From NCBI GenBank assembly GCA_035935755.1, contig DASYWU010000048.1:78829-142828 (forward strand): DNA of 64,000 bases. Direction: 5' to 3'. The DNA is from Terracidiphilus sp. Its GTDB lineage: Bacteria; Acidobacteriota; Terriglobia; Terriglobales; Acidobacteriaceae. Position numbers and translations under genes: made by a program. Shown here one piece after another: positions 5,907 to 40,985 of this stretch (position 1 is its first letter; each line of letters starts with the position of its first letter). The notes beneath the pieces were generated by a model. It was given only the letters and a program-made list of their open reading frames with translations. It made no database searches and was not told the DNA's origin.

Positions 5907-6034
5907 AGATCGTTTCATCCCATCCGAGCCGCACTCCGGCCATAAACCGCGAAGCGGCAATTCCCCGCTGCGGACGCAAAAGAGCCCGGACATTGCCGGG
6001 CTCTTTTGCTTGCCTTTGTTGCCTGTTAGAAAAG

Positions 6035-6544: not shown

Positions 6545-6747
6545 CCCATTGCCTCCAGCGCTGCTGCGCTGCGTTGATGGTTTCGCTCTTCGCACGGCGG
6601 ACGTTCGATTCCGCTTGCGGAAGCCATTGTAGCAATAGCTTGCACGTAAACACTATCAAAACACAAGTGCGGAATAAACGATCAGGCATTTTTTATTTTT
6701 TTATCCGCTTGTACCACTGCACTGTGGTGCGGCCAAAGCCCAAGACC

Positions 6748-8670: not shown

Positions 8671-8897
8671 TTAAGGATGCAACCGCTCCTGTCCGTGTTG
8701 GGTCCAGTTCCACCCGGAAACGATACGCAACGCACGGTTTCGCGCGCTTTCCTTGAACCGCTGGAAATGCGCGCAGCGCTTACCGCGCCGTGGCCAGACC
8801 GGGGAGGACACTATTGTCGATGATAAGCTATGCCATGGAGGTCCGCTGCGGCGGACGCGGGAAATACGCGATTCCTCCCTTCACCGAACCTCCCACC

Positions 8898-10709
<1,812 letters not shown>

Positions 10710-23326: not shown

Positions 23327-23332
23327 TTTTTT

Positions 23333-24565: not shown

Positions 24566-24567
24566 CG

Positions 24568-26187: not shown

Positions 26188-26294
26188 GAACCGCGGTCTT
26201 GGGCCAGTGTCCCACGGCCTACGACACACTAACAATCCCGTTCCCACTACGGCGCTTGCATAAGAAACCAGGCCGTGTTTCTCAGGAGCGGCTC

Positions 26295-26756
26295 CTATCC
26301 GGAGGAAGCCAACACATCATCTGGCGATAGAACAATGATGCCGCTGTACCGCCGAAAGTCCTTGTCATTGAGCGTCAGCAAGTTCGCAATTCCGTGTACG
26401 CGCATCGCTGCCACCATGCGAGCGTCGTGAACCTGAATACCAGAGATGCCCGCTGCAACTAGAATTCTCCGCCACTCTCGATGTGTGGCCTCGCTATCAG
26501 CGGCAAAAGAGAATCTGGATTCGATCAGAGCAGTGCGTTCATCCGTCTCTGCGATCGAGAATCCGAATCCATTCCGGTCAGCCGGTCGCGTGCAGACGCT
26601 CCAGAATTCAGCCAGATTTTGCGATGTTTAGAAGAGGTCCGCTCCCTGTGCCCAAAGACGATCCGTACATTGCCGGATCGTTGCATATTCGGGGCTGTCC
26701 GGCTGTACGAGGCGGAGCAGAATATTCGTGTCCACCAGGTAGGACGAGCCGGGCAT
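26295..26756 (-). pseudogene. vapC: PIN-domain toxin (VapC) interrupted by an in-frame TAA at codon 43
   Basis: My manual reverse translation gives MPGSSYLVDTNILLRL...LWAQGADLF*TSQNLAEFWSV...LTLNDKDFRRY. The stop is at 26628-26630. ATGA overlap with the upstream antitoxin gene. Confidence 0.8.
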
Positions 26757-27013
26757 CAGGCGTGTTCACCGTAGATCATTTCCCGTGAAAAAGTCTCGGT
26801 CCGCAGTTGCGGGATATTCGGCGCTTTGCTCGCAAGCGCATCCAGAAACGCGCGAAATTCTTCCTGGCTTGCACGTGCATGCCCTTTGCCCCTGAACGCG
26901 ATCGCTTCCTGAAGAAGCCGCTGCGCATACATCTCCAGCGCCATGCCGCGAGCCATTGCTTCAGCGGCAAGCTGTCTTTCCATCTCCGGGTTGAGTTCGA
27001 CACGGATGGTCAT
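26756..27013 (-). CDS. Antitoxin of the disrupted vapBC-like module
   Basis: 85-aa ORF (MTIRVELNPEMERQLAAEA..) immediately upstream of, and overlapping, the PIN reading frame. Confidence 0.65.
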   Translation of the reverse strand: MTIRVELNPEMERQLAAEAMARGMALEMYAQRLLQEAIAFRGKGHARASQEEFRAFLDALASKAPNIPQLRTETFSREMIYGEHA

Positions 27014-27075
27014 GGAAGCCTCGCTCTACCAATTATCGGATGTTGGCGGCGTGAAGTCGACTCAGGCCTTGATTT

Positions 27076-27231
27076 GCGGCGTCGCCGGCTACTCGAAGTC
27101 CTCACCGCCGAAGCCGCGCTCCTCCAGAACCAGCGCACCGCATCGACATCGAAACCCGCCGCTTCGCCGCCAGCGTAGGCCTGGTCCGCGCCCTCGGCGG
27201 CGGCTGGGACATAACGCAATTGCCGAAGTAA
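27076..27231 (+). pseudogene. Orphan copy of the OMF gene 3' end (copy B), frameshifted
   Basis: 27092-27231 matches 26047-26187 except for a 1-bp deletion (caccgccatc versus caccgcatc) and 7 substitutions in the last 27 nt. Weaker similarity extends upstream to about 27076. Confidence 0.85.
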
Positions 27232-27374
27232 CACTCCCGACTGAAGATCCACGGCTGCCCTCGTGAACCCCGACTTGACCCCCGGCCGAGACCACTCCCC
27301 AGCCGCCCCCGGCATCTATGCGCTTGCGAGAGTGTAGAACGCCGTTCCCATATCCCCAGTCCAGGAGTATATAG

Positions 27375-28841
27375 ATGAAAAACAGCTGTATCTTATTGGC
27401 GGCTTCCATGATAGCCGCGTGCCCGGGAGCAAGCGCGCAGACGCCCATCTTCGGCCAGAGGACCTATACCGGCCTGTACACCTATAACCACGCCGACCTG
27501 AACCGCACCGGGCGCGAGAGCCTGATCTACCACACCCAGACATCGGGGTTTGCCGTGGTGCTAAGCACCGGTCCCGGCACCTATGCCGCGCCGGTGGACT
27601 ACAACGTCCCCGACAATCAGCCTTCCGGAACCATCACCCTGGACATCAACAACGACAGTTTCCCTGACGTGATTGCCTTCAACAGCTCCGCCCCGGGATT
27701 TTACGAATATCTCAACAATGGCGATGGATCCCTCCACCTCCAGTCCACCTACCAGATGGCTAATATCCAGGACATGGTAGTAGGCGATTTCAATCACGAC
27801 GGCTACCCGGATATCGCCTTCACCACCCTCGACGGCAACCTGCATGTGTGGTTCAACAATCACGCCAGCGGTTTCTCGGTAGGGCCGACCACCACCGTGC
27901 CAGGCACCTGGCAGTTGAGCATCGGCGATTTTGATGGCGACGGCAAAGCCGACATTGCCGCAACCGGCAGCAACGGAACCTATCTCTACTTCGGCGACGG
28001 CGCCGGCCACTTCGCGGTGGTAAACGCGACCACCTCCCATCATCCTTATATGTTCCTGATGGACATCGATGGCGACGGCAAGAGTGACCTCGTCGGCGCG
28101 GCCATCGCCGGAAGCAGCAGCGGGAACAACACCTACTACCGCGATCTGTGGGTGGTCTACGGCAACTCCTCGCGCACCATCACTGAGGCCGACATTCCCC
28201 TCAACGGCTACGTGATGCCGTGGCAGGATGGATACGTTCTCGGCGAGGCGACCCCCAGCGTCGACGTGGCCGATTTCAACGGCGACGGCAAACGGGATTT
28301 CGCCGTTGTCGAAGCATTGGACAGCGACGGATATGGTGGCCGCACGCTCGCCGTGAAATCGGGAAACGGCAATCGCACCTGGGCCGACGAGGTCAATGTC
28401 TACTCTGACAACAATCTCGACGCCGGCGTGGCCGCGCTCCGCGTCGAGCATTCGCTCAAGCCCGATCTGCTGGTGGACACCTTCCTGAACCCTTCCACCT
28501 TTACCGCGCATTTCTTCATCAACGACACCTCGGGCGGCTACTACGGCGGATGCGATTTCCCCAGCGAGGCCTCGGCAATTGCCATCTGCTCGCCGGAGAC
28601 CTACAGCTCCTCTCCGCAGTCGTGGAAACTAAGTGGAGCGGTGCCGACCACCATGCGCAAAATGGAGATCTGGGTCGATGGCGTGAAGAAGTACCAGGAA
28701 ATCGGCAACCATGACTTTGGGCATTACGGGGTGCTGGACACCACGCTCACGCTCTCGTCTGGCACGCACAAAGTAACGGTGATCGCAGCCGGATACGACA
28801 ATCTGGAAGTAAAGGACACGTTAACCGTCTCCGTACCCTGA
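27375..28841 (+). CDS. Secreted FG-GAP/VCBS repeat protein with a C-terminal Ig-like region
   Basis: Signal peptide, and repeated D.[DN]GDG..D calcium-binding loops (DFNHDGYPD, DFDGDGKAD, DIDGDGKSD, DFNGDGKRD). Confidence 0.8.
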   Translation: MKNSCILLAASMIAACPGASAQTPIFGQRTYTGLYTYNHADLNRTGRESLIYHTQTSGFAVVLSTGPGTYAAPVDYNVPDNQPSGTITLDINNDSFPDVIAFNSSAPGFYEYLNNGDGSLHLQSTYQMANIQDMVVGDFNHDGYPDIAFTTLDGNLHVWFNNHASGFSVGPTTTVPGTWQLSIGDFDGDGKADIAATGSNGTYLYFGDGAGHFAVVNATTSHHPYMFLMDIDGDGKSDLVGAAIAGSSSGNNTYYRDLWVVYGNSSRTITEADIPLNGYVMPWQDGYVLGEATPSVDVADFNGDGKRDFAVVEALDSDGYGGRTLAVKSGNGNRTWADEVNVYSDNNLDAGVAALRVEHSLKPDLLVDTFLNPSTFTAHFFINDTSGGYYGGCDFPSEASAIAICSPETYSSSPQSWKLSGAVPTTMRKMEIWVDGVKKYQEIGNHDFGHYGVLDTTLTLSSGTHKVTVIAAGYDNLEVKDTLTVSVP

Positions 28842-28905
28842 GCCGAAACCGCCGGGGGACAGCCGGCACCCTCAAAACAGCCGTCCGTCCCCCGCACTCC
28901 TGCCC

Positions 28906-29028
28906 AACCAGCGCACCGCCATCGACATCGAAACCCGCGGGTGCCCCCGGTCTCGATCCTGAGACCGGGGACGCCGCAGCTCCAGCACCCGATCCAGCCC
29001 TTTCTCCCGCCCCGTTTCGCCGCCAGCG
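28906..29028 (+). pseudogene. Third, short remnant of the OMF gene 3' end (copy C), split by an inserted hairpin element
   Basis: 28906-28938 (33 nt) is identical to 26084-26116. The match resumes for 13 nt (ttcgccgccagcg) at 29016-29028. Confidence 0.75.
28939..29012. repeat. REP/MITE-like palindromic insertion
   Basis: About 74 bp interrupting OMF remnant C. Contains a perfect 10-bp stem CCCCGGTCTC-gatcct-GAGACCGGGG at 28945-28970. Confidence 0.55.
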
Positions 29029-29068
29029 CGATCCGGTTTGCGATTTTTAAAATCTGCCGCCGCGTTCT

Positions 29069-30250
29069 TTATTGCTCATCCACCGGCTTCCCCTTCGTGG
29101 CCTGGCCCTGGTTGCCGGGCGCAGTGCTCGAGAACTGTCCCGACATAATTGCCTCGGTCTCCTTGTGCACCCTGGCGATATCGGCTGTCGAGCGGATGGC
29201 CTCCGAGTTCGCCTCGTTGAGCGCACGTTGCGTTGCGCGTAGCAGTTCCAGGTAATCAGGTTTCTTCTGCATCTGCGCCTTTTGCTGTGCGTTAGCCTCA
29301 CCCTTCTGCGGCTGATCCGTACCTGATTCCTGGTTGCGCTCGTTTGGCGTCCCAGCATCCGAGCCTGGTTGCCGCTTGGGTCCGTACCGGATGGCCGCCT
29401 GGGCTTGCAAGTCTGCAAGCTGTTTTTTCAGGCTTTCTACTTTCTCACGACTGGCTACGAGGGCTTCGCCGTCGCGCACGGTGCGTTTCAGAATCTCCCC
29501 GTAAACCGGAGTAAGCCGCTGAGGATCTGGCGTAGTGGTGAAATGTACAGGCGGCGCCGAGCTGCACTGCACCCCGATGGGGTTGCCGTGCAGCGCTTCC
29601 ATGGCTTCGCCGGCCAGATATTTCACCTCGTCGAGCTCCCGGGCGTCAGCATCACCGGTAGCAATTTTGTGGACATCTTCCACAGCGTAGTTCGCCAGTT
29701 CGGCGGAGCAATGAAGCTGCTTCCAGGCGGTGATTACGTCACGCTGATTCGAGTCTGCAGATCGCGCCTTGATGCCGTAGTTCGGATTTCCCGCCGCTTC
29801 CTCCGGTGAAACTCCCTTGAGCCCGAAAGTGGAATCGCCGATGCCCTTGAGCTGCATGTTGTCCGCAGTGACACCCTTCAGGTGAGACGCCGCATCCGCC
29901 ACTCCAGCCCTCCACTCCTCCTCTGCCTTCGCCCGCTCCGCAGCCTCCCGGTCCTCTTCAAGCTTCTGCTGGCGCTCTAGCTCTATGAGCCGATGTTGCT
30001 CCTCCTCTTTGGCGCGTTGGGCCTGGATTTCGGCTTCCGAAGGCCCGGAGTAGTTGGAACCATCAGATGATCCGCCCGAGCCTGCGCTACAACGCACAAC
30101 GTGGCCGTTGTAATCAATGCAGTCGCCGGTCGGAGTTTGCGCATGCAGCCGCTGCGATATGACGCAGAATACCATCGCGATTCCTGCGAATAGTACAGAG
30201 TTCACGAAGAACTTCCCCATTCCGCTTCTCGTCGCCATATCGAGTCTCAT
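29069..30250 (-). CDS. Hypothetical secreted coiled-coil protein
   Basis: 393 aa. Hydrophobic N-terminal segment, an E/Q/R/A-rich coiled-coil stretch (EAEIQAQRAKEEEQHRLIELERQQKLEEDREAAERAKAEEE) and a Q/K-rich tail. It is the last gene of the minus-strand block. Confidence 0.6.
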   Translation of the reverse strand: MRLDMATRSGMGKFFVNSVLFAGIAMVFCVISQRLHAQTPTGDCIDYNGHVVRCSAGSGGSSDGSNYSGPSEAEIQAQRAKEEEQHRLIELERQQKLEEDREAAERAKAEEEWRAGVADAASHLKGVTADNMQLKGIGDSTFGLKGVSPEEAAGNPNYGIKARSADSNQRDVITAWKQLHCSAELANYAVEDVHKIATGDADARELDEVKYLAGEAMEALHGNPIGVQCSSAPPVHFTTTPDPQRLTPVYGEILKRTVRDGEALVASREKVESLKKQLADLQAQAAIRYGPKRQPGSDAGTPNERNQESGTDQPQKGEANAQQKAQMQKKPDYLELLRATQRALNEANSEAIRSTADIARVHKETEAIMSGQFSSTAPGNQGQATKGKPVDEQ

Positions 30251-30333
30251 CCCCTCCTCCGTTGACTAATCGTGCGAGCGCAGCCAACATTCTCAATACC
30301 TAGATCGGAGCATATTGCCAAGAGCCTTCCACA

Positions 30334-31227
30334 CTAATGCTGCTGTTGCACTTCCCGCTGGGCTAGCATTATGGAAGAACAATTCAATCCGTCCGCACCT
30401 ATGTACGGATACGGTTTTTGGTGATCGCATTCCATTTCCACGTAAGGAGCAAAATTCAGTAATGAGCATTCTTGACCTTGAACGTCTATCGATCCGCCGC
30501 CTCCTTCTAAACTTGGACGCACGCTATAAACTGCTCCGACCACCAAGCGATTGCGAAAGCCGGGGCATCTAGTTTCAATGACGGTATTGTCTTGCCACCA
30601 ATAATCGAACCTCCATGGGTACTGTTGCGTGCTCATTGCAAAACCAATTCTTCCCCCGCCTTCCCCCAGGAATTGGATTTGCGCAGGTTCGTTACTTTTC
30701 CATAGATTGTCCAAGGCGGCATGCGCCGCTGTTGAATCGCTGGAAGGCTGGCTTTTTGTGTACTTAATTCCCTCGATCCTTCCTCGTACTGCCCCCGCAT
30801 CGGGCGCATCCGGTGCAGCAACAAGATAGAAGTTGAGTGCGTGAATCGCTTCGTCATACTGTGCAGCCTTTTCAGCTGCGGCGGCTTCATTGAAGTAATA
30901 ATCAGAAACCCATGGTGCGACTTGGGATGCCTGCGCGAAAGCTGCCGCAGCAGCTTTCACATCATCCGGCGTGGTCGCGTGAGCAAAGATCGTCTTCGCC
31001 TTGCCGTCGGCAGCTTGAGCTTCTTCGGGCACCGCCGGCTTGGGATCGAGCGTCAAAGCGAGCTTAATGATCTTCGTCCGCAGCGCATCGTTCGAGGGAT
31101 CTGCCTGCAACTGCGTAACGTACTGTTGAAGTTGATCACGAGGAGTGGGACTTCCGCCCTGCTGCCCGCGAACGCCGGTCCAAACGAAGATCATTGCCAG
31201 CGCGACGAGAATTGAGTTTTGGCGCAT
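30334..31227 (-). CDS. Modular secreted paralog P1 (conserved N-module plus unique C-module)
   Basis: Signal peptide. N-module PRDQLQQYVTQLQADPSNDALRTKIIKLALTLDPKPA...APWVSDYYFNE...AIHALNFYLVAAP..VRGRIEGIKY. Unique 130-aa C-terminus. Confidence 0.7.
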   Translation of the reverse strand: MRQNSILVALAMIFVWTGVRGQQGGSPTPRDQLQQYVTQLQADPSNDALRTKIIKLALTLDPKPAVPEEAQAADGKAKTIFAHATTPDDVKAAAAAFAQASQVAPWVSDYYFNEAAAAEKAAQYDEAIHALNFYLVAAPDAPDAGAVRGRIEGIKYTKSQPSSDSTAAHAALDNLWKSNEPAQIQFLGEGGGRIGFAMSTQQYPWRFDYWWQDNTVIETRCPGFRNRLVVGAVYSVRPSLEGGGGSIDVQGQECSLLNFAPYVEMECDHQKPYPYIGADGLNCSSIMLAQREVQQQH

Positions 31228-31309
31228 AGATCACCCATCCAGTCGAACGTGAAATGCTGACTATCGAATTCCCATTTGCTCCGATCCAAATTCAGGACTC
31301 CAACGCCAG

Positions 31310-32365
31310 TTATCTCCCGCGACTTTTCGTTCTCTTTGCCACACTCATGCCAAGAACCCAGTACCCGTCACGAGTTTCTGTTGCATAGACGGTGCCGTTG
31401 ACGTAACCCGTCCACGAAATCTCCTTTTCACTTATCGTGCCCATCGCGTAGCAGTAGGCATTGCGGGGTATGTCGCCGTAGTCGCGGGCGCAATTTGGCA
31501 ACGGAACACGGAATGCTCGTCCATCGATCGGGTAGTCGAAGGTTTGGTGGTCTATCAGGCGGTTGCCACCGTCGTAATGGCCGCTATAGGCTTCATATTC
31601 TTCGGATATTCTGTCACCTGTTATCGTCCAAGTCACGATAAAGCGGTTGCCCAAACTATCAGCGCGCTCGTGGCTGTAAACCGCACCGTCCAAGGAACGG
31701 ACCAACGGGTCAAGATTTGCGAGTCGCTGCTGTTCTTCACGCTGCGCTTGCTCTCGAGCTCGTTTAGCGTCAAGTTCTCGTTGACGCTCAGCTTGCGCCT
31801 CAGCGTCTCTTCTTTCTTGCTCCGCCTTTGCCTCCGCATCCTTTTGTGCCTGTTCTGCCTGCGCCGCGGCTTGTTGCTGTTCAAGGACGTAAGAAAGTGC
31901 GCCGATCTTTTCGCGGACCTTCTTCGCGTCCGGCGATTCCTGCGGATAAGCCAGGTTGCTCAGCTTGTAATTCCTCAAAGCGTCGGCGGGGTGGTTGGCC
32001 TTCTCGTATGCAACGGCAGCATCGAAGTAGTAATCCGGCAGCCAGGGCACAACAAGAGTTACCTTCTCGAAAGCATCTGCGGCCTTAAGCAGATCGTCGG
32101 GGGAAGTGGCATGCTCGAAAATGTATTGCGCTCGTCCAGCCAATTCATCAGCTTCCGGAGGAATGGCCGGAGGTGGCTGGAGTTGCTGCGCCAACTGAAT
32201 GATCTTCGTCCGCAGCACGTCATCCGACGGGTTCGCCTGCAACTGCGTCTCGTACTGCTGGAGCTGCTCGCGCGGGCTTGTGGTTTCCTGAGCTAAAGCA
32301 GAAGCTGCGTAGATTGCAATAATCGCGATGGACAGGGCGCGGAGAGGCATAACGTGTCGCTTCAT
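31310..32365 (-). CDS. Modular secreted paralog P2
   Basis: Signal peptide and the most divergent copy of the N-module (PREQLQQYETQLQANPSDDVLRTKIIQLAQQLQPPPA). Long Q/A/E/R coiled-coil linker and a unique C-terminus. Its ATG overlaps the P3 stop (ATGA). Confidence 0.7.
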   Translation of the reverse strand: MKRHVMPLRALSIAIIAIYAASALAQETTSPREQLQQYETQLQANPSDDVLRTKIIQLAQQLQPPPAIPPEADELAGRAQYIFEHATSPDDLLKAADAFEKVTLVVPWLPDYYFDAAVAYEKANHPADALRNYKLSNLAYPQESPDAKKVREKIGALSYVLEQQQAAAQAEQAQKDAEAKAEQERRDAEAQAERQRELDAKRAREQAQREEQQRLANLDPLVRSLDGAVYSHERADSLGNRFIVTWTITGDRISEEYEAYSGHYDGGNRLIDHQTFDYPIDGRAFRVPLPNCARDYGDIPRNAYCYAMGTISEKEISWTGYVNGTVYATETRDGYWVLGMSVAKRTKSRGR

Positions 32366-33288
32366 TGGTTCGCTACCTTCTCTAATGTGATGTTCTCATC
32401 CGTACAATTGAGCAAATTGTGGCGTTGAAACACAGACCTATCCTGGGGTGTCAGGTTGGGGTTTACATAATAAGAGAGTGACAAATAGATCCGCGTATTA
32501 TCGGTACTTATCGATCCATGGAATTGTCCAATGATGCAACTAGTTCGCCCTGCGCCCGGGTGATCTGTAAACCGACCCGCGAAACTGTGACCAGCCAAGG
32601 TGCCACTTCCGCTCTCTAGTCCATCAATTATGGGCCCTCCGTCCCGTGCACTTGGACCCATCCCATAAGTGATGCTCAGGTTGTCTCCGGACAAGTGGAA
32701 CCTATATACCCAAGCGGAAGGTTCCTCCAAAGACCACGTGCCGTTAATTGCATCCCGCAACTCTGCTTCCTTTTGCCTAGCGTTTATGGCCTCTTCGGCC
32801 TGCTCCTGCCGGGCACTGCTCTCCTTTTCATACTTAATTCCCTCGATCTTCCCACGCACATCGGCGGCATCTGCTGCATTCGGCGCTGCGAGTAGGTAGA
32901 AGTTAAGTGCGTGAATCGCGTCGTCAAATTGCTTTGCCTTTTCGAAGGCGAGCCCCTCGTTGTAGTAATAATCCGGCATCCAGGGCGCTAACAGCGACGC
33001 CTGAGCAAAGGCTGCTGCTGCAGCTTTCATGTCGTCCGTCGAACCGGCGCTGGCAAAGATCGTCTTGCCTTTGGCGGCGTCGACGGCAGCATCTTGCGTC
33101 GCCGCCGGTTTGGGATCGAGCGTCAGCGCCAGTTGAATAATCTTCGTCCGTAGCGCATCGTCTGTCGGATTCGCCTGTAACTGCGCCACGTACTGCTGCA
33201 ACTGCTCGCGCGAAATCGGCGGAGATTGAGAATGCAGATAGCACAAGCAAATCGCCGCGAAAAAGAGGGCGTGAAGAATCGTTCTCAT
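32362..33288 (-). CDS. Modular secreted paralog P3
   Basis: I chose the start at MRTILHALFFAAICL (ATG at 33288) rather than the ORF-track start at 33483. N-module SREQLQQYVAQLQANPTDDALRTKIIQLALTLDPKPA. Unique C-terminus. Confidence 0.7.
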   Translation of the reverse strand: MRTILHALFFAAICLCYLHSQSPPISREQLQQYVAQLQANPTDDALRTKIIQLALTLDPKPAATQDAAVDAAKGKTIFASAGSTDDMKAAAAAFAQASLLAPWMPDYYYNEGLAFEKAKQFDDAIHALNFYLLAAPNAADAADVRGKIEGIKYEKESSARQEQAEEAINARQKEAELRDAINGTWSLEEPSAWVYRFHLSGDNLSITYGMGPSARDGGPIIDGLESGSGTLAGHSFAGRFTDHPGAGRTSCIIGQFHGSISTDNTRIYLSLSYYVNPNLTPQDRSVFQRHNLLNCTDENITLEKVANQ

Positions 33289-33337
33289 TGAAATTGTCCT
33301 CCTTACCGTGTCCACACTCATTCTGCTCAGCATGTCG

Positions 33338-34225
33338 TTATTGGCGATGCAGCTCAACGCTCTCTGTCCCATCAGCTGGTGCATCCATGTTACCCATAAT
33401 CGCGCAGCTTCCAACCAAAGCTGAGCCGCCGCCCTCAGTACTAAGAGAACAGTCCGCTGTTTGCCATGCGCTTCTAAAGGCATAGCGCACTCTGAAGCTC
33501 ACATTGGAGCCTTCAATCCGGTAGCTTTGCAAGTTCGTTACGTCGCACAAGTCACCGCAATCCAAATGGACCGAGTATGTATTACCTGTGCGGCTTACTT
33601 CCAATGCATTCCCCATGTATGGTGAGATAACGTAATGGTGCGGGATAATGAACGACCATCTGCCAACGACTGCGTTCCGGCGCGCTTCCTCTTGCGCCTG
33701 AGTCTGTTTCGCTCTTTCCTCCTGTTCCTGCTGCGCCTGTTGCGAAATTTGATATTTGAGTGCACCAATGTTTTCCCTGACCGTGTCGGCATCGGTCGCG
33801 CCCGGTGCCGCTAGCGAATAGAACTGATAGGCTTTTATCGCTTCCTCCAGACGCTTAGCTTTTTCAAACGCCAGGCCCTCATTGAAATACAGATCAGCGC
33901 GCCAGGGCGCTTCGAGCGCCGCCTTCGCATAGAGATTTGCCGCATTGATCAAGTCCGCGCCGGACTGCGCACTCTTGAAGGCATACGTCGCGGCGCCGAT
34001 CGTCTCCGGCAGGTCGGGCGGATCCGCCGGCTTCGGATCCAGCGTCAGCGCAAGCTGAATGATCTTCGTCCGCAACGCATCGTCTGCCGGATTCGCCTGT
34101 AACTGTGTCACATTCTCCTGCAACTGCTCGCGAGGACTTAACGAAAGAGCTTGATTCTGCGCCGACGTTCTGTAAAACGTTGCTGCCAGGAAAACAATTA
34201 CGAGATAATGTCTTCGCGAAGTCAC
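33338..34225 (-). CDS. Modular secreted paralog P4
   Basis: Signal peptide. N-module PREQLQENVTQLQANPADDALRTKIIQLALTLDPKPA. QQEQEERAKQTQAQEEARR linker. Unique Cys-containing C-terminus. Confidence 0.7.
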   Translation of the reverse strand: MTSRRHYLVIVFLAATFYRTSAQNQALSLSPREQLQENVTQLQANPADDALRTKIIQLALTLDPKPADPPDLPETIGAATYAFKSAQSGADLINAANLYAKAALEAPWRADLYFNEGLAFEKAKRLEEAIKAYQFYSLAAPGATDADTVRENIGALKYQISQQAQQEQEERAKQTQAQEEARRNAVVGRWSFIIPHHYVISPYMGNALEVSRTGNTYSVHLDCGDLCDVTNLQSYRIEGSNVSFRVRYAFRSAWQTADCSLSTEGGGSALVGSCAIMGNMDAPADGTESVELHRQ

Positions 34226-34318
34226 TCTGCTCCTCCGTGTAAACCAAAATCCACAGCGATCCCAACTTCCAAACCGTTCATGGTTATATTTGACTCCGGA
34301 TTCTGCCGGTCTCCCGTT

Positions 34319-35284
34319 TCACCACGGACATACCGAGCTCGTGCTGCCGGGGTCGCTCACGCGCGAATAGATGAACGGGATCTCTCCCGGAAAGCGAGCA
34401 TCATTATCCTCTATCTCGCCGTTGCTGTTGATCTGCAGGCTGTCGGTTTCACCGAACGCCGTAAACGTGGCAATCCGGCCGGAGACATGACCTTTTCGTG
34501 AGCTAATCCGGCCCGGCCCGTTCCCATAAGAGTCAGAACGATCCTGGCACCACGTTTCCGTGATTTCATCTCCGGATATGTCGAACTTCACATGCGAAAG
34601 ATAGTAATTGTCCCATCGTCCCCTGACACCGCGAAATTGTTGGACACGTTCGGCTCCTCCCGTGATTCTCCAAGTGCCCGACCATTGGTTCTGCAATTCC
34701 GCTTGCTCTCGCTGCTGTTCCTGCTCCTGGCGTTGCTGCGCTTCCTCTTGCTGTCGCTGCGCAGTTTGGGCGGCGTCCTTTTGCGTAAGCTGATATTTGA
34801 GCGCCCCAATCTGTTTCGTTACCTGGTCCGTATCCTTTGCGTTCGGTGCCGCGAGCAAATAAAGTTGGTACGCGGCAATTGCCTTCGGCTGCTCGTTCGC
34901 CTTCTCGTAGCACATGCCGAGGTTGTAATAATCGCCGGCATTCCAGGGGGCAAGCAGCAGGGCCTGTTCGTACTCGGCGGCGGCACTTGTGAAGTCCGCT
35001 GGGGACTGAGCATGCTTGAACGCATACTCGGCAGCGCCTTCGTGTTCGATCGCACCGGTGGGGATTTCAGGCCTGGGATCGAGCGTGAGCGCGAGTTGAA
35101 TGATCTTCGTCCGCAGCGCGTCGTTGGACGGGCTTGACTGCAGTTGCGTGACGTACTGCTGGAGTTGCTCGCGCGGGCTTGGCTGTGTTTGGCTCTTCGC
35201 CCGTACAGCGAATCCGAGAATAGCCACGCAGCCTGCTACAGCTAACATCGGTTCAAGAAATACACTCCATCGCCTTCTACCCAT
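34319..35284 (-). CDS. Modular secreted paralog P5
   Basis: I chose the start at MGRRRWSVFLEPMLAVAGC (ATG at 35284). N-module PREQLQQYVTQLQSSPSNDALRTKIIQLALTLDPRPE. Q/E-rich linker. Unique C-terminus. Confidence 0.65.
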   Translation of the reverse strand: MGRRRWSVFLEPMLAVAGCVAILGFAVRAKSQTQPSPREQLQQYVTQLQSSPSNDALRTKIIQLALTLDPRPEIPTGAIEHEGAAEYAFKHAQSPADFTSAAAEYEQALLLAPWNAGDYYNLGMCYEKANEQPKAIAAYQLYLLAAPNAKDTDQVTKQIGALKYQLTQKDAAQTAQRQQEEAQQRQEQEQQREQAELQNQWSGTWRITGGAERVQQFRGVRGRWDNYYLSHVKFDISGDEITETWCQDRSDSYGNGPGRISSRKGHVSGRIATFTAFGETDSLQINSNGEIEDNDARFPGEIPFIYSRVSDPGSTSSVCPW

Positions 35285-35395
35285 CTGCGCGAACACCTCC
35301 TCCCGAAGTACTGTGACTCGCACAATCAGAGAACGGTTTGCCAATAGGTAGCACCGGCCACCTTGAGACCCGCTTACCCCTCGATCCTAGGCAGT

Positions 35396-36685
35396 TCATG
35401 GGCAAGTGCCTCCGTTAGCGGACCCCGAAAATATGTTCCACGTGCCATCGGACTCATACTCGACGTGATACCGGGCGCCATCGATGATCCCCAAGTCCGA
35501 TGTCCCAGAACACGGATGAGTGTTTCCACCGGCGGAATAGCTGGAAAAAACCACCAGTGATGGTTCGAGTGCACGCCAATCGCCGTCATCGATGTGGTCC
35601 AGTGCGGAAGTGTCAAACAAAACAATCACACCGAAACCGCGATTATCCAAAACAACCGTTTCAGGCACACCTAAGAATTGTCTGCTGCCAACCGAAGAGC
35701 GAACGAACTTGGCGTAATATGCTTCGCGTGCGCGCTCACGATATAGCTCGCTGAGGCTGGTTCGGATTGAGCTGGTCGTATTTGCTGCGGGAGAAAGGAT
35801 GATCTCCATATCGCCATGCAGACTTTGGTCGTAATTCATCACAAAGTTCGCCTGGCCTCTGGATGTTCTAATCACAAACGGTATGTTCCCACTCCCATTG
35901 AGATCGGTTAGCCGGATTTGGTGCAAGCCCATAACATCGAGATCGCATACCATGAGCTCGTCGTACATGGCAGCGCCGTCTCTCACCGTGCTGATTTTTA
36001 GCGACACGCCGTGCGTGTTCCCGAGCCCGTCGATTCTGAGGTCGCTGAATGCTCCACCGTACCGGTAGAGCAGATCTAGCGGATCAGCTCCGGCCCCGTA
36101 CTTTCGCGCTAGTAGCTCATTGTCTTGCGCTTCGCTTGCTGCCTTCGACATTTCGTACTTGATTCCCTCGATCTTGCCGCGCACGTCCGCCGTGTCAGAA
36201 GCGCCCGGTGCGGCAAGCAAATAGAAGTTGAGATCTCGAATTGCGTCGTCGTACTGCTTTACCTTCTCGAGCGCGAGCCCTTCGTTGTAGTAGTTGTCCG
36301 GCACCCAAGGAGCGATCTGTGAGGCCTGAGCGAAGGCTGCTGCCGCCGCTTTCAACTCGTCTGGCGAACTGGCGCTCGCGAAGATCGTCTTTCCCTTCGC
36401 GGCGTCAACGGCAGCGTCTTCCGGTACTGCCGGCTTCGGATCGAGCGTCAACGCGAGCTGGATGATCTTCGTCCGCAGCGCATTGTCTGACGGGTTTGCC
36501 TGCAACTGCGTCACATACTGCTGGAACTCTTCGCGCGGCGTCGTTTCGGACGATTGTGCAAAGGAGCGTGCTGTTGCCGATGACGCAAGGGCCAGAGTCA
36601 CCACGGAAAGGCAAATCGTGATTCCCCTAACCTCCGTACTGTTTCGATCAGAGCGGCAGTTTGGTTTTGGAACCCTGGTCAGCAT
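35396..36685 (-). CDS. Modular secreted paralog P6 (largest C-module)
   Basis: Hydrophobic N-terminal segment. N-module PREEFQQYVTQLQANPSDNALRTKIIQLALTLDPKPA...VRGKIEGIKYE. Unique C-terminus of about 260 aa. The start codon is uncertain. Confidence 0.65.
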   Translation of the reverse strand: MLTRVPKPNCRSDRNSTEVRGITICLSVVTLALASSATARSFAQSSETTPREEFQQYVTQLQANPSDNALRTKIIQLALTLDPKPAVPEDAAVDAAKGKTIFASASSPDELKAAAAAFAQASQIAPWVPDNYYNEGLALEKVKQYDDAIRDLNFYLLAAPGASDTADVRGKIEGIKYEMSKAASEAQDNELLARKYGAGADPLDLLYRYGGAFSDLRIDGLGNTHGVSLKISTVRDGAAMYDELMVCDLDVMGLHQIRLTDLNGSGNIPFVIRTSRGQANFVMNYDQSLHGDMEIILSPAANTTSSIRTSLSELYRERAREAYYAKFVRSSVGSRQFLGVPETVVLDNRGFGVIVLFDTSALDHIDDGDWRALEPSLVVFSSYSAGGNTHPCSGTSDLGIIDGARYHVEYESDGTWNIFSGSANGGTCP

Positions 36686-36950
36686 TTTTCATGATCCTCT
36701 CTGTTTCACTTATCTCCATCGCTTGCGAGGAGCGGCGAAACGACCTAAGAACCCCGTCGAGTAGACCGATATACATCTTGTTAAAACGGCGTTCAAACTG
36801 TTTTACGGTTTCATCAGGCAGAAACTTAAGCTGATTCATTGTGCACTTCCAAAAGTAATGACCTTGTGATCATTCACTTCGAAATGGTGGGTTTTCGTCA
36901 TTGGCGCATAACCAGTTGCGGTTGCGGTAAATGAGTGGTTTGCCGGCGCA

Positions 36951-37151
36951 CTAACATAAGTTGTACAGCTGTCTCCTGACCAAATCTGCGATTGCGCACA
37001 GGCCGGGCCATTGCCATCTAACGTTACCTGGATTGTGACACCGGGTATTGTTCACAATCTTCACTTCGGCCTGATTGACAAGCTGTTGGCCAAGCAATGT
37101 AGCAGCCATGGCAAATACAGCACACGATATTACAAAGTGCAAAGTTTTCAT
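36951..37151 (-). CDS. Small secreted Cys-containing protein (66 aa)
   Basis: ATG at 37151 is preceded by GGAGAG. Signal peptide MKTLHFVISCAVFAMAATLLG. The mature part has 3 Cys. Located directly downstream of the FecR-domain gene. Confidence 0.45.
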   Translation of the reverse strand: MKTLHFVISCAVFAMAATLLGQQLVNQAEVKIVNNTRCHNPGNVRWQWPGLCAIADLVRRQLYNLC

Positions 37152-37190
37152 GCTCTCTCCAATCTCAGGAACTCCCGCTGAATCGTGCAT

Positions 37191-38144
37191 TCATTGTTTT
37201 GTTTTCCACCAACGCGCCACTGCTTTCGGATCTAGCGAAGTCATCGAAGCAACAGCGCCCGTCTTCGGCACCACGAGTTGCTGCCCCCCGGTCAGCGTCA
37301 CCTTTGTACGGCCGCCGCCGGGGTCCACTTCCACCGAGCCCTCCAGAACCGTCACCGTGTCCTTCTTTCCGTCCGTCGATAAAGTGAAGTCCGTGCCCCG
37401 CACCGCGCAGGTGGCGGTAAGGCCGCGATAGCGTGCGTCATCATTTGCGCCGCGCACGCCCATGATGATGGTTATCTTGTGCATCTCGCCCCGGAAGATC
37501 TGCCACTCCACGCCCTTCACATCGCGCTCGTACTCGAAATCGGTGTTCGCCTTGAGGTGCATCTCACTTCCGTTCCCAAGCTGCAGCTCAAGGAACGCAT
37601 TCGGGCCCAGGTGAATATGCTGGCCCGGCTGCACCGGAAGGTTGGGATCGAAGGGCTTCGCTCCCTGCGGCGTGTCCACGGTAATTTGCCCGCGGAAAAT
37701 AGTCGCCAGCGCCCGCGGTCCAATCGAATCTCCTATTGTGGTCCAGAGAACCAGCGCATGGTTCGCGGCATCCAGTCGTTTCTCGTCGTCGCCCAGGTTC
37801 TGACGCGCCGCATCCAGCGCCTGTTGGGCGTTTTCAATCGCTTGTTGGGTAACACCGGCGCCATCGGAATCATGATCCGAGAGAGCCTGCTGGTGAGCCG
37901 CCTGCGCCCGCGACAACAGGTCCTGATCTCTGCCCATGGCGGCTTTGTCTTCGTTGACTCTCTTGAGAAATTCCCCCTTCATCTGAAGAAGGTCGGCATT
38001 GGGAACGTTCTGCGCCGAACCTGAATTGGGCAGCAGGAGGCAAAGCAGGCACAGAAAAGTCCCCATGACGCCACCGAATATCCGCTTTCTGCCTGCACGC
38101 AGACACTCAGGCGGAAAGATTCCGTTGGGCAAAGGCTTCGCCAC
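37191..38144 (-). CDS. FecR-domain protein (signal/anchor, coiled coil, FecR beta-sandwich)
   Basis: GTG start preceded by AGGAGG. Hydrophobic N-terminal segment. FecR-like region (GQHIHLGPNAFLELQLGNGSEMHLKANTDFEYE...VRGTDFTL). No ECF sigma gene is adjacent. Confidence 0.7.
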   Translation of the reverse strand: MAKPLPNGIFPPECLRAGRKRIFGGVMGTFLCLLCLLLPNSGSAQNVPNADLLQMKGEFLKRVNEDKAAMGRDQDLLSRAQAAHQQALSDHDSDGAGVTQQAIENAQQALDAARQNLGDDEKRLDAANHALVLWTTIGDSIGPRALATIFRGQITVDTPQGAKPFDPNLPVQPGQHIHLGPNAFLELQLGNGSEMHLKANTDFEYERDVKGVEWQIFRGEMHKITIIMGVRGANDDARYRGLTATCAVRGTDFTLSTDGKKDTVTVLEGSVEVDPGGGRTKVTLTGGQQLVVPKTGAVASMTSLDPKAVARWWKTKQ

Positions 38145-38878
38145 TTCACCTCCTGCCGGATGAGCTCAAGCGTTCTCTCAGTGAGCGGCGCATACCATCA
38201 AAAACCGCTTCACAGTAGAACCGCCATATCGAAACAGAACTCACATCAAAATCGCAGACAGCAAGCTATCCAGGTTTGTGCGCTGAATTCGGCGCGCCTG
38301 CTTTTAAATGAAGACAGAATGGAAACGACTGGGCCGGGCCCTATGAAGGAAGCGCGTGCATAGCGCAGGATGACTCAAGCCGAATCAGATCACGCCGCAC
38401 TGCTGGAAAAATATGAATAGCGGCATCTTACAAATCCCGCTGGAGATTGCACATAACCTTTTTGCTGAGGGGGACATAGCCAATCCGGGGCAGTCTCTTT
38501 CAGGCGTGGGTCAAAAACAAGCCTTCCCGCAGACCGTCTCAACCCAGGGTGCACCCCAAAGCTTGTCAAGCCCTTGCCGCAAAAATATTTTTCAAGTCCT
38601 CTGTTTCCAGCAGCTTGGAAGGGGTGGCAATTTGCCGATTAATTATTCCGCATGGAGCACAATAGAAAACATAGAACCAGAACCGGAGCAGAAATGCAGC
38701 CGTATCAGCTCAACGCTACACAGCAACGAATTCCGAACGCTATAAATCCGAGTGGCCTTTTCATTTCGGGGTCCCCGGCGACTTGTGTTCGTCGCCGAGG
38801 TGGAAGTAAAAGCCACCTTGGAATTCAATTGACACCGGCACTCATCAGCGAAGCTGTTACCTGCCGGTCGATAGCCGC

Positions 38879-38958
38879 GAACTGTGAACTACGAACTAGG
38901 AACTATGAACTGCCAGCTGTTACTTCTTCACTGTCCACCGTTCACCGTTCACTGTTCC
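38879..38958. repeat. Two inverted arrays of 7-bp GAAC-phased repeats flanking a central CAGCTG
   Basis: Left array: GAACTGT GAACTAC GAACTAG GAACTAT GAACTGC (38879-38913). Right array, read on the opposite strand: GAACAGT GAACGGT GAACGGT GGACAGT GAAGAAG (38958-38921). Confidence 0.8.
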
Positions 38959-38981
38959 CTCTTAGCTGCGGCCGCTTCTAC

Positions 38982-39006
38982 GCGCCTTCTGGCGCCTTTT
39001 ATTTTT
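38982..39006 (+). terminator. Weak rho-independent terminator-like element (GCGCC-ttct-GGCGC followed by TTTTATTTTT)
   Basis: 5-bp GC stem plus a 10-nt T-rich tract on the plus strand, at the end of the non-coding gap. Confidence 0.35.
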
Positions 39007-39038
39007 CACTATGCAGCAATGCAGCAATGCACTTTCCG

Positions 39039-40985
39039 CTACTGCAACACCAGCGGCTCATTCGCCGCTGCCGAAGTGTTTTGCAGGTTCGTCACGTGTA
39101 CACCGGCCTGAACCTCCGGCACTGAGCCGTCGTTAAGCTGCACCTGCGTTGGCTCACCCTGGATCAGAACCCGCTGCACAATCTTGCCCTGCGCCGGAAC
39201 CATCACCCACCGCGTCACCGCGGTGTTCCCCGCTTTCACCGTCAACGGAACTTGCGCCGCCGCGTACCCCGCATTGGACACGTCCACGGCTACCAGCCAG
39301 TTGCCTCCCGCGGCCTCGCTCGGATACACGTGGTCGATACTCAGATCGGGCAGACCGTCATCCGCGTTGATCCACTGCGAGAAGAACCAGCCCAGATCGC
39401 GCCCGTCACCCGCCTGCTCGATACACTTTTCCAGCGAGAGCGCCGATTTGCCCGCCGCGCCATTCGCGCTCTGCGCGTTGTAGGCACGCAGCGCGCTTGC
39501 CAGCGCCTTGTCGCCTACCAGGTCGCGCAGCATCCACAACACGTAAACCGCTTTCGTCCGGTAGTAGATCGGCGTATACGCCTCGGGCAGCGGCTCGCCC
39601 GCACTCACTCCCGGACTCGCCGGTTCCACAAGCGCGAGCGCCTGGCGCGACGATCCGAGCGCAGTGAGCGCCTTGTCGCGCCCACCCTGCCGCTCGATCC
39701 ACATCGTGCCCATGAAATCAGCAACGCCTTCGCTCAGCCACGCTTGCGGCGAATCGACATAAGCATGGCTCAGCGCATGCGCAAGAATTCTTGAAACCTC
39801 GGTGGCGGCGCCCGGTTTGACTCCGGTGGCCAGAAACGCCCCATCCTCGAACGGCGCATCATTCGCGTCCGGCAGGTCCAGCACCGTCACCGCCGTGTGC
39901 GGCGCGTCGCCCAGCCAGCTCTTGAGGAATGGCGTCACTTCGTCGTCCGATGCTTTCCACGAAAATGCCGCCGCGTCATCCGCGGCCAGCGTCCACAGTT
40001 TCATGTTCGGCGCCACCGCATGCTGGTCGCGCACCGCGATAAATAAGCTCGGCGCCTGAAAGCCAAGCGTCGAGCCGGAAAGATTCGCCGTCGCCACACC
40101 TGCGACTTCTGCGCTGTCGGCTTTGGTCACGGTCAGCGGAACGGAGTGCCCGTTGACCACCGCAACTGTCGGAGCCTGCCCCTGCGGAAACTCATCCGTC
40201 AGCCGCAGGTTGAAGCTCGCGCCGGTCAGCCGCAGTTTCTGTCGCCCGATTTCATCGAACAGTTTCGCGCCATCGCCGAGCAACGCCGGCACGCTGGCCA
40301 CGGGATACCACACCACGTCTCCGAAGCCGCGCAGGCCGGTGAAATCCGTTCCGATCCCATCCCAGTCGGACTGCATTGCCGCCTCGTCCGGCGCACCGAT
40401 TGCCTTTAGCCGCTTGGCATTGAGCGCAATCTCGCCAGAATAATTCACGTCAAGTAAGGCGCTCGCCCCCGGCGCAAGCGGTGCGGCCAAGGGCACTGCA
40501 GCTTCGTGCAACTGTCCGGTGTGGTCGGCGTCCGAATTCAGCGTCGCCACCGGGAACTGCACATCTCGTCCGTCGAGGCGGATGCTTTCCCACTTAAGCG
40601 ACGAAGAAATCTGCAGCGGAATGCGCGTGAGCGGCGCCGTTCCGTCATTGCGCACCGTCACCCGGGCACGCACGGCGATGTGCTGCTGCGCCGCCTCCAG
40701 GCGCACATCCATGTCATAAGCTGTGCATCGAACCGCCTGACGCTCCGCATCCGTTGCAGCCGGCGCAGCGGTGGAAAGCTCCACGGACTGCGCCGCCGGA
40801 CCAACGATCGTCTTCGTCTCGCCGTTCGGGTCTGTGGTTCGCGAAAAGACAACTTTCCCCGGCATCTGCGGCGCCGCCTGAACCGGTTGCTGCGCGCTTT
40901 GTGCTGAAGTTGTCGATTGCGCAACGCAGGGCAAAAGTGCAAAACCGGCTGCGAATGCCGCAACACCGGCCAATAAAACCTTCAT
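39039..40985 (-). CDS. Secreted M1-like (gluzincin aminopeptidase N-type) protein with a degenerate HExxH motif (HALSH)
   Basis: Signal peptide. ILAHALSHAY..WLSEGVADFMG occupies the position of HExxH...WLNEGFA, and a downstream YYRTKAVYVLWMLRDLVG motif is present. The start overlaps the rlmB stop (ATGA). Confidence 0.65.
   Translation of the reverse strand: MKVLLAGVAAFAAGFALLPCVAQSTTSAQSAQQPVQAAPQMPGKVVFSRTTDPNGETKTIVGPAAQSVELSTAAPAATDAERQAVRCTAYDMDVRLEAAQQHIAVRARVTVRNDGTAPLTRIPLQISSSLKWESIRLDGRDVQFPVATLNSDADHTGQLHEAAVPLAAPLAPGASALLDVNYSGEIALNAKRLKAIGAPDEAAMQSDWDGIGTDFTGLRGFGDVVWYPVASVPALLGDGAKLFDEIGRQKLRLTGASFNLRLTDEFPQGQAPTVAVVNGHSVPLTVTKADSAEVAGVATANLSGSTLGFQAPSLFIAVRDQHAVAPNMKLWTLAADDAAAFSWKASDDEVTPFLKSWLGDAPHTAVTVLDLPDANDAPFEDGAFLATGVKPGAATEVSRILAHALSHAYVDSPQAWLSEGVADFMGTMWIERQGGRDKALTALGSSRQALALVEPASPGVSAGEPLPEAYTPIYYRTKAVYVLWMLRDLVGDKALASALRAYNAQSANGAAGKSALSLEKCIEQAGDGRDLGWFFSQWINADDGLPDLSIDHVYPSEAAGGNWLVAVDVSNAGYAAAQVPLTVKAGNTAVTRWVMVPAQGKIVQRVLIQGEPTQVQLNDGSVPEVQAGVHVTNLQNTSAAANEPLVLQ

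Follow-up and report, generated by a model that had tools for sequence, protein, structure and literature searches.

A block of nine genes on the minus strand (29069–38144) of a stretch of 64,000 nucleotides (nt) from Terracidiphilus sp. contig DASYWU010000048.1, the whole of which is called the window here, encodes a FecR-domain protein, a small open reading frame (ORF), six tandem paralogs (P1–P6) in which a conserved tetratricopeptide repeat (TPR) head is joined to differing tails, and a helical protein that we term the hub. The architecture of these parts and the occurrence of the FecR, head, and hub gene types together in independent loci are directly observed. We hold the evidence to be about evenly balanced on whether the block represents one instance of a conserved, undescribed, and exported three-part cluster of soil Acidobacteriota-type bacteria that acts as a scaffold-and-adaptor assembly. 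The feature itself is real and conserved and, as far as sequence comparison can tell, is built from known folds (TPR and FecR) together with two families without a relative.

An earlier reading of this DNA (the original prediction) had proposed the nine-gene block with its coordinates, its short gaps, and the shared head, all of which the ORF listing and an alignment of the paralogs reproduced. The interval between the FecR gene and the small ORF is 0–39 nt, set by the choice of start codon, and a further 265 nt separate the small ORF from P1. The gaps within the array are 111, 93, and 49 nt (P1–P2, P2–P3, and P3–P4), followed by an ATGA overlap of the P4 stop with the P5 start (-4 nt, 32362–32365) and by gaps of 82 and 83 nt (P5–P6 and P6–hub). 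The genes, and the repeat segment of the hub, are the following (aa, amino acids; HMM, hidden Markov model):

37191–38144, minus strand: FecR-domain protein, 317 aa (Pfam FecR, E = 2.4e-7, 31.6 bits against a cut-off of 24)
36951–37190, minus strand: small ORF, 66 aa (ATG at 37151) or 79 aa (ATG at 37190), no homologue in related loci
35396–36685, minus strand: P1, 429 aa, with signal peptide, head (aa 50–177, nt 36155–36538), short linker, and 250-aa tail (head HMM E = 1.8e-66)
34319–35284, minus strand: P2, 321 aa, with head (nt 34793–35176), 35-aa Q/E-rich helix, and beta tail (head HMM E = 3.1e-72)
33338–34225, minus strand: P3, 295 aa, with head (nt 33752–34135), 26-aa linker, and 109-aa tail
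32362–33288, minus strand: P4, 308 aa, with head (nt 32830–33213), 26-aa linker, and beta tail (head HMM E = 2e-68)
31310–32365, minus strand: P5, 351 aa, with head (nt 31889–32275), 72-residue continuous helix, and eight-strand beta tail (AlphaFold2)
30334–31227, minus strand: P6, 297 aa, with head (nt 30760–31143), almost no linker, and 137-aa tail with four Cys (head HMM E = 1.6e-67)
29069–30250, minus strand: hub, 393 aa (alignment of 18 homologues, AlphaFold2 model)
29801–29896, minus strand: segment of three LKG motifs in the hub, aa 119–150, DAASHLKGVTADNMQLKGIGDSTFGLKGVSPE (alignment of 18 homologues)

Head, spacer, and tail of the six paralogs

Conservation among the paralogs is concentrated in the head, a region of ~128 aa that holds 33 of the 35 invariant columns of the six-paralog alignment and has a mean column identity of 71% when aligned alone. 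At the DNA level, identity of 75–85% over the head drops abruptly to noise (~40%) at about nt 465, and the part that codes for the signal peptide is likewise divergent. The heads match Pfam TPR_9, TPR_1, and TPR_2 (E = 1e-3 to 3e-7), with all six under every Pfam TPR gathering cut-off, and give weak NCBIfam matches to LcrH_SycD and MamA; among family members as a whole, 115 of 145 match TPR_9. A profile of the six heads detects the tandem repeats of consensus TPR (CTPR) and O-GlcNAc-transferase (OGT) TPR chains among PDB sequences (E = 4e-19 to 1e-7). For P5, an AlphaFold2 model based on 38 aligned sequences, with a mean predicted local distance difference test (pLDDT) of 90.1, stacks six helices into three hairpins over residues 31–139 (pLDDT 96–98), and Foldseek pairs it with OGT, CTPR, MamA, PcrH, and CHIP TPR structures at probabilities of 0.99–1.0. 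As modelled, the head is a genuine three-hairpin TPR domain, which bears out the TPR-like appearance that had been noted by eye. The string APW...YYN...A...YLLAAP is canonical TPR sequence, while the first hairpin and a Pro-rich loop (PREQLQQYV...LRTKIIQLA...PKPA) follow a pattern of the family, LxQYVxxLQxxPxDxALRxKIIxLA...PxPAxP.

The heads belong to a large family. An exhaustive HMMER search of 1.84 billion representatives with the head profile returned 1,552 clusters (50% identity) at E ≤ 1e-30, with two and probably three of the window's own proteins among these matches, and 11,074 clusters at E ≤ 1e-10; weaker matches merge into generic TPR proteins. A word-index (k-mer prefiltered) search had yielded 30 proteins and the impression of a rare family, an impression overturned by the exhaustive search; the word-index count is an under-estimate, as it returned none of the window's six paralogs. 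The family is consequently neither rare nor special to this genome. The 144 top members have a median length of 308 aa and the same build as in the window, 30 of 182 analyzed members hold two to four heads per chain, and their source names are generic ("TPR repeat protein", "cytochrome c6", "ankyrin/TPR", "RseP"). Species-representative genomes gave only two head matches, both in metagenome-assembled genomes of Acidobacteriota, and one fragment from the word-index search is labelled Verrucomicrobiae. The original prediction was also right that no specific named family applies: across Pfam, NCBIfam, PADLOC, and PHROGs, no NCBIfam model matches the family significantly, Pfam offers only generic TPR models (sub-threshold for the window proteins, above threshold in some relatives), no block protein matches PADLOC, and the single PHROGs match is marginal (E = 0.002, to a family of unknown function, within the TPR region of P2). 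A tblastn search of phage and plasmid collections with the head family was blank, as was a pattern scan of viral contigs that reaches close relatives only.

A linker rich in E, Q, R, K, and A follows the head in P2–P5 (26–56 aa, with one to four hydrophobic residues each) and is reduced to ~14 aa in P1 and P6. Residues 145–216 of the P5 model form a single continuous helix (pLDDT 97–98). The linkers had been described as Q/E/A/R-rich coiled coils in four of the six paralogs, of which the composition stands and the coiled coil is not supported, there being no hydrophobic a/d heptad. An ER/K-type single-helix spacer is the more likely structure, because the linkers are nearly devoid of hydrophobic residues and lack a heptad core. 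The N-terminal hydrophobic helices of the P5 and hub models look like signal peptides, and Cys residues are almost absent from the heads and occur in mostly even numbers in the tails; from these two features we infer that the paralogs are exported.

No significant pairwise similarity links the six tails of the window, and when 132 family tails of at least 50 aa, trimmed of their linkers, were clustered with phmmer, the six fell in six different clusters. P5 founds the largest of these (c0, 28 members). Comparison of profiles with hhalign aligned the P5 cluster with the P4 cluster (76% probability, 72 columns), the cluster of the third head protein of locus L007 (L007-h3) with the P4 cluster (89%, 78 columns), and, weakly, the P5 cluster with the P2 cluster (30%). 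An iterative profile grown from the P5 cluster recruited 83 of the 132 tails, with P4 (E = 7.3e-5) and P2 (E = 7.8e-7) each recognized prior to inclusion in the profile, values to be read with the small database and the possible drift of iterative profiles in mind; the P1 and P6 tails were not recruited by this profile. These comparisons indicate that the P2, P4, and P5 tails share one fast-diverging beta domain of ~110 aa, that the P3 tail probably belongs to the same superfamily, and that the P1 tail, which contains three Cys, and the P6 tail are of different types. The description of the tails as unrelated therefore survives for pairwise similarity and fails at the level of profiles for P2, P4, P5, and, weakly, P3. 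The profile result goes part of the way towards the outcome (six tails of one fold) under which the original prediction would have seen an ordinary paralog expansion.

In the P5 model the tail comprises a short helix (220–224) and eight strands (229–347), mostly at high pLDDT. The lipocalin/calycin barrel, an eight-stranded antiparallel meander often preceded by a short helix, may be set beside it by count of helix and strands alone. The 28-member P5-tail profile found nothing at E < 0.09 among PDB sequences and nothing below 0.0035 in Pfam, none of it significant, and Foldseek of the whole P5 model against PDB and BFVD returned matches to the TPR head only. The tail domain is accordingly a family for which sequence searches of Pfam and PDB reveal no relative. 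A word-index search with the six tails concatenated found nothing, and is uninformative because it also missed L007-h1, an orthologue almost identical to P2. A regular expression written by hand for a tail motif, "hShSxDGxxh", matched 30 of 131 tails against 2.2 expected, missed the window's own tails, and was not used. A few other tails of the family are recognizable binding or redox domains: among 144 representatives, Pfam identifies Lcl_C in four, ankyrin in two, and PDZ, cytochrome c, and MORN in one each, and one member of locus L005 carries an NHL beta-propeller tail.

Companion genes and arrays in other genomes

The hub opens with a putative signal peptide and a hairpin that has two Cys, and continues through an S/G-rich stretch, a charged helix (aa 72–123), and three LKG motifs into a helical bundle bearing the invariant elements W-x-Q-x-H-C, D-E, and a second Cys (W176, Q178, H180, C181, and E208 being invariant). 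The word-index search identified 18 members of the hub family, down to 23% identity, none of them with a Pfam domain. The AlphaFold2 model has a pLDDT of 68 overall and of 80–95 in the helices; Foldseek against PDB gave nothing at E < 0.5 and only generic long-helix proteins above that, and a search of PDB sequences gave no match. The hub thus appears as a helical family without a relative detectable by sequence. It is the protein that the original prediction had labelled a coiled-coil protein. The LKG motifs begin at aa 124, 134, and 144, a spacing of exactly 10 residues, in a segment modelled at a pLDDT of only 45–55. Across the 18 homologues L124, K125, G126, F142, K145, and G146 are invariant, and K135, G136, and G143 are conserved in at least 90%. 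An LKG or LKD repeat recurs in the hub-like proteins of loci L003 and L005 and is absent from the other retrieved proteins, which are those of the head family.

The N-terminal part of the hub also occurs in other contexts. In L002 (10760–12124), a 454-aa protein fuses the hub N-module (Cys motif, charged helix, and LKG repeats) to an unrelated C-region without a Pfam match, in which ...ACHSNGAM... resembles, by eye, the nucleophile elbow of a serine hydrolase. In L001 (10905–11828), the gene between the head and the hub encodes a protein of 307 aa that begins with the leader of the hub (signal peptide, C-x-DG-x-x-VR-...-C hairpin, and SGNSGGSS stretch) and is otherwise unrelated. This leader, common to the hub and the L001 protein, could be a distinct module that different proteins share, for example a signal for sorting or modification.

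The identity of the FecR-domain protein was as predicted, with Pfam FecR (PF04773) above its cut-off. Its N-terminus reads as a signal peptide ending ...SGSA/QN, which is followed by a charged helical region (~55–135) and by the FecR beta-sandwich at aa 178–272 (nt 37329–37613). No Pfam family matches N-terminal to the FecR domain, and neither an anti-sigma N-domain nor a transmembrane helix was found there. NCBIfam gives weak matches to the Leptospira FecR-domain lipoproteins Lsa33 and LipL45 (30.6 against a family cut-off of 420). No extracytoplasmic function (ECF) sigma factor or TonB-dependent transducer is present among the window neighbours, the genes listed for L004 and L007, or the L001 ORFs. 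The Cys-containing small ORF, which the original prediction counted as part of the cluster, has no counterpart by tblastn in any related locus and no Pfam, NCBIfam, PADLOC, or PHROG match, and L001 and L007 leave no space for it between FecR and the first head gene; it probably lies outside the conserved system.

Related loci were scanned with head, hub, and FecR profiles and by reading their ORFs; L007–L011 were fetched via the hub and the rest via the head. The gene orders are as follows:

Window: FecR, small ORF, six heads, hub
L001: FecR, one head, 307-aa protein with Cys-hairpin/SG leader, hub
L002: one head, fusion of the hub N-module with another C-domain
L004: split head gene, FecR, head with cytochrome c, head with P5-type tail, hub
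L007: FecR, three heads, reversed-order gene (new N-domain, TPR at the C-terminus), hub
L009: head, hub, head
L012: hub, three to four heads
L013: FecR, three heads, end of contig
L016: 470-aa hub-like protein (E = 3.5e-12), then a three-head protein whose start it overlaps

Hub homologues adjoin head genes in L001, L002, L004, L007–L012, and L016, and FecR orthologues do so in L001, L004, L007, and L013. All three gene types stand together in the window, L001, L004, and L007. Of these, the window, L001, and L007 run from FecR through the heads to the hub, and L004 departs from this order only in the split head gene 5' of FecR; L002, L009, L012, and L016 have heads and hub, and L013 has FecR and heads. 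In L003, a single protein of 594 aa combines four LKG motifs, a hub-like helical region, the head TPR, and a GxW tail, while L005 has eight heads in a row, 5' of which lie a protein with Cys motif, TPR, and LKD repeats and another that shares a "VVDARDVP...HDW" region. From these gene orders, tandem arrays are therefore the norm, the hub-type gene is the most constant companion of the heads, and FecR is a frequent one, so that co-conservation of the head genes with FecR and the downstream helical gene in other genomes is supported.

The closest comparison is with L007, which has three heads and one gene of reversed architecture against the six heads of the window, and whose FecR protein is 77.5% identical to that of the window. 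P2 and L007-h1 share 90% identity over the head and 94% over the tail, P5 and L007-h2 77% and 56%, and P4 and L007-h3 84% and 29%; P1, P3, and P6 have no counterpart in L007. The array grew by tandem duplication with a sharp boundary between head and tail, and the tails turn over between close relatives.

Several features of individual loci are recorded here. Family members at L007 8987–9985 and at L009 2477–3808 have the reverse architecture, in which the head TPR stands near or at the C-terminus behind a novel N-terminal domain. In L004, where the first head gene is split, a separate 96-aa ORF (8636–8926) matches the tail profile (E = 4e-12), and DUF5681 and large terminase domain (Terminase_6C) genes (5705–7644) lie directly 5' of the head/FecR/hub cluster. 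On the 3' side of the eight-head array of L005 (11363–14105) are a Sel1-repeat/thioredoxin protein and a 256-aa RVT_1 reverse-transcriptase gene.

Composition and surroundings of the block

The guanine-plus-cytosine content (GC) of the block is 55.5% versus 61.2% in the rest of the window, and at third codon positions (GC3) it is 52–64% in the paralogs versus 72–86% in the flanking genes. The original prediction had the direction of this contrast right and overstated its size (53% versus 67%). The low-GC trend is seen likewise in L001 and L007 and is marginal in L004. One further feature adjoins the block:

38145–39038, no strand assigned: gene-poor, lower-GC stretch of ~0.9 kb 5' of the FecR gene (GC 52.7%)

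This stretch is presumed to be the promoter region of the block. It contains no Rfam family match, promoter and terminator motif matches for the block region were no better than chance, and the ORF at 38652–39125 has no Pfam match.

The block is bordered by genes for an M1-peptidase-like protein, a SpoU methylase, and an FG-GAP protein, with a resistance-nodulation-division (RND) efflux operon further out (20033–26187). As had been predicted from the ORFs and neighbours, the 49–111 nt gaps between paralogs contain no same-strand ORF of 50 aa or more, and no ECF sigma or transporter gene lies within the block or directly adjoins it. There are likewise no integrase, tRNA, or phage genes around the block in the window and no secretion-system genes near it. 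On the far side of the hub gene, window positions 20033–28841 are syntenic with L007 11468–21152 (an FG-GAP protein, then OEP, membrane-fusion, and AcrB-type RND efflux genes), while the FecR side differs, with the SpoU methylase and M1-like peptidase in the window and MacB/FtsX and PadR in L007. L007 also has an extra FG-GAP protein of 1,441 aa after the hub. FG-GAP proteins were considered as a component of the system and rejected, being present only in the window and the syntenic L007 and not in the other loci.

The peptidase-like gene (39039–40985, minus strand) encodes a 648-aa exported protein with a partial Peptidase_M1 match just under the cut-off (E = 4.9e-6) and, by eye, HALSH at the expected site of the HExxH zinc motif; it may be an inactive M1-peptidase homologue. 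An 85-aa ORF at 26756–27013 (minus strand; MTIRVELNPEMERQLAAEAMARGMALEMYAQRLL...) resembles, by eye, a ribbon-helix-helix antitoxin and has no Pfam match at E ≤ 0.01.

A possible extracytoplasmic scaffold and its rivals

In the assembly that we propose, all parts of the cluster would act outside the cytoplasm, and the conserved head would be a common docking module that joins each paralog to the same partner. The likeliest partner would be the hub, with its LKG linear motifs bound in the TPR groove; alternatively, the partner could be the FecR domain, with LKG segments joined to its beta-sandwich by strand addition. Spacer helices of 0–72 residues would hold the tails 0–10 nm away, and the tails would be ligand- or protein-binding modules of differing specificities. 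The invariance of the LKG motifs at a 10-residue spacing within a low-confidence segment is the pattern expected of linear motifs that fold on binding, and docking of the heads to these motifs is favored because three-repeat TPR domains typically bind such peptides. The TPR domains of the class II type III secretion chaperones PcrH/SycD and of CHIP, Hop, and MamA resemble the head in size (~130 aa) and in their three helical hairpins with a capping helix (Foldseek probability ~1), and those of PcrH/SycD and CHIP/Hop accommodate short linear peptides in the groove, from which the docking idea derives; the head described here differs in its signal-peptide export, the charged helix and variable beta domain that follow it, its tandem arrays, and its family-specific and highly conserved first hairpin. 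By analogy, its docking would follow a logic comparable to that of TPR domains and EEVD peptides. Specific docking of TPR heads on LKG motifs nevertheless stays a tentative suggestion that we judge more doubtful than probable. The fuller scheme, an unrecognized extracytoplasmic scaffold in which each of the three LKG motifs recruits one head, the array supplies interchangeable adaptors, ER/K helices set their reach, and the FecR protein ties the assembly to the envelope, is speculative and on balance unlikely to be right in all its parts. The same low expectation applies to the adaptor tails in that scheme, where a beta domain, lectin, PDZ, ankyrin, cytochrome c, or NHL propeller would bind ligands or carry other functions.

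Several observations weigh against the scaffold-and-adaptor assembly. Loci L007–L011 lend no independent weight to the hub linkage because they were fetched through the hub, FecR is not near the heads in L002, L003, L005, L012, and L016, and L017 has neither FecR nor hub within 14 kb, in a contig that starts close to the gene. The hub family numbers 18 proteins versus more than 1,500 head clusters, a weak comparison because the searches differ greatly in sensitivity, and many head genes may work without a hub. That the heads dock to the LKG motifs or to FecR is conjecture throughout, and the tail fold was matched to nothing, with the Foldseek output dominated by the TPR head.

The simplest rival is an ordinary lineage-specific expansion of periplasmic TPR proteins, with C-termini that have drifted and with the FecR and helical proteins as mere neighbours. 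The generic TPR fold of the head, the membership of three to four tails in one domain superfamily, the size of a family that often lacks FecR nearby, and the lack of a regulatory or catalytic element that ties the genes together all agree with such an expansion. It accounts poorly for a hub-type gene that adjoins heads in at least eight loci differing in sequence and flanks (down to E = 3.5e-12), for the single protein of L003 that fuses hub and head-tail modules, and for a gene order (FecR, heads, hub) that the window, L001, and L007 have in common and that L004 mostly follows. Moreover, the tails of P1 and P6, like the cytochrome c, ankyrin, PDZ, and lectin tails, are replacements and not the result of drift, and we regard the expansion as a serious though rather unlikely account. 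The original prediction had named polymorphic effectors, with adhesins and receptors, as families in which a conserved head with swapped tails is typical; in a polymorphic effector or toxin family, the head would be a trafficking domain and the tails toxic or effector domains delivered to competitors or hosts. As in polymorphic toxin, Rhs, and contact-dependent growth inhibition (CDI) systems, a conserved N-terminal part with swapped C-terminal parts meets at a sharp, recombination-like junction, the tail repertoire differs between strains and close relatives, and GC3 lies below that of the flanks. The resemblance ends there: no toxin or enzyme domain was recognized by Pfam, NCBIfam, or PADLOC in the six proteins or the 144 representatives, the 49–111 nt gaps hold no immunity-sized ORF, no dedicated secretion system is encoded nearby, and the tblastn and viral-contig searches described above (the latter reaching close relatives only) did not find the family on plasmids or phages. 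The tails consist of small beta domains or of classic binding domains, at least half of them divergent homologues, and the 94% conservation of the P2/L007-h1 tail indicates purifying selection and not an arms race, so that this reading did not survive and is now very improbable.

Trans-envelope signalling of the Fec type, in which the TPR proteins would capture an outer-membrane or periplasmic signal and the FecR protein would sense it and pass it on to gene expression, draws on the bona fide FecR domain and on the common use of TPR proteins as signalling adaptors. A similar case is found in Sinorhizobium meliloti, where the periplasmic FecR-domain protein SMc02177, the periplasmic SMc02178 (of unknown function), and the exported TPR protein SMb20495 are co-regulated cyclic AMP (cAMP)/Clr targets with a shared phenotype (PMC5498481). 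This trio is the nearest experimentally touched case, likened here by description and not by homology, and its own mechanism is unknown (PMC5498481). Compared with FecR of the E. coli FecIRA system, the protein of the window has the Pfam FecR domain in common and lacks the anti-sigma N-domain, the transmembrane helix, the ECF sigma factor, and the transducer; its N-terminus looks like a cleavable signal peptide, genes for an ECF sigma factor or a TonB-dependent transducer are absent from the window block and from the L001, L004, and L007 clusters, and no output domain of any kind was found, all of which makes such signalling quite improbable. The FecR protein is closer to LipL45, Lsa33, and SMc02177, being likewise wholly extracytoplasmic and without a sigma partner, and differs from the Leptospira lipoproteins LipL45 and Lsa33 in having no lipobox. 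A phage-derived or anti-phage element, whether of receptor decoys, superinfection exclusion, or the target array of a diversity-generating retroelement (DGR), was brought to mind by the terminase and DUF5681 genes that adjoin the L004 cluster, by the RVT_1 gene 2 kb 3' of the eight-head array in L005, and by the Lcl_C tails of some members. Lcl_C is a lectin-type fold used by DGR targets. The repeats in window positions 27000–40000 are head segments and FG-GAP repeats (27785–28309) with no template/variable pair, and those of the L005 array are head, signal-peptide, NHL, and Sel1 repeats only. With no PADLOC match, one marginal PHROG match, blank phage and plasmid collections, a blank viral-contig scan that reaches close relatives only, and no integrase, tRNA, or phage genes around the window block, a phage-related origin is scarcely credible, and a DGR in L005 is unlikely.

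Two further systems provide points of comparison for the scaffold-and-adaptor assembly. Cohesin–dockerin complexes of the cellulosome are alike by analogy only, in that an array of docking sites receives a constant docking module that carries variable functional modules; there is no relation in sequence or fold, the sites proposed here are short linear motifs instead of folded domains, and their docking is hypothetical. CpoB/YbgF of the Tol-Pal system is an exported protein with a long helical region and a three-repeat TPR domain. Its domain order is opposite to that of the paralogs, it has neither a variable C-terminal domain nor tandem arrays, and Pfam and NCBIfam scans of the block proteins gave no CpoB/YbgF match.

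The characterization of the block as an undescribed system holds, in that no specific Pfam or NCBIfam model covers it and searches of the literature library on the FecR domain with TPR, Acidobacteria, LipL45, or coiled-coil returned no paper on the family. The Acidobacteriota are among the most abundant bacteria of soils, and no function has been assigned to much of what they export. The cluster defines undescribed families in the form of a TPR subfamily (more than 1,500 clusters at 50% identity), a ~110-aa beta domain, and a triple-LKG hub, and gives a non-signalling context for the FecR domain. Should the scaffold be real, the head subtype, the tail domain, and the hub would be three new families of such a structure, and if the docking is true, it would represent a new bacterial way to assemble variable binding modules on a common extracytoplasmic scaffold and a concrete function for sigma-less FecR-domain proteins. 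If the docking is false, the family definitions remain, together with an example of tandem-array evolution that conserves the heads and replaces the tails.

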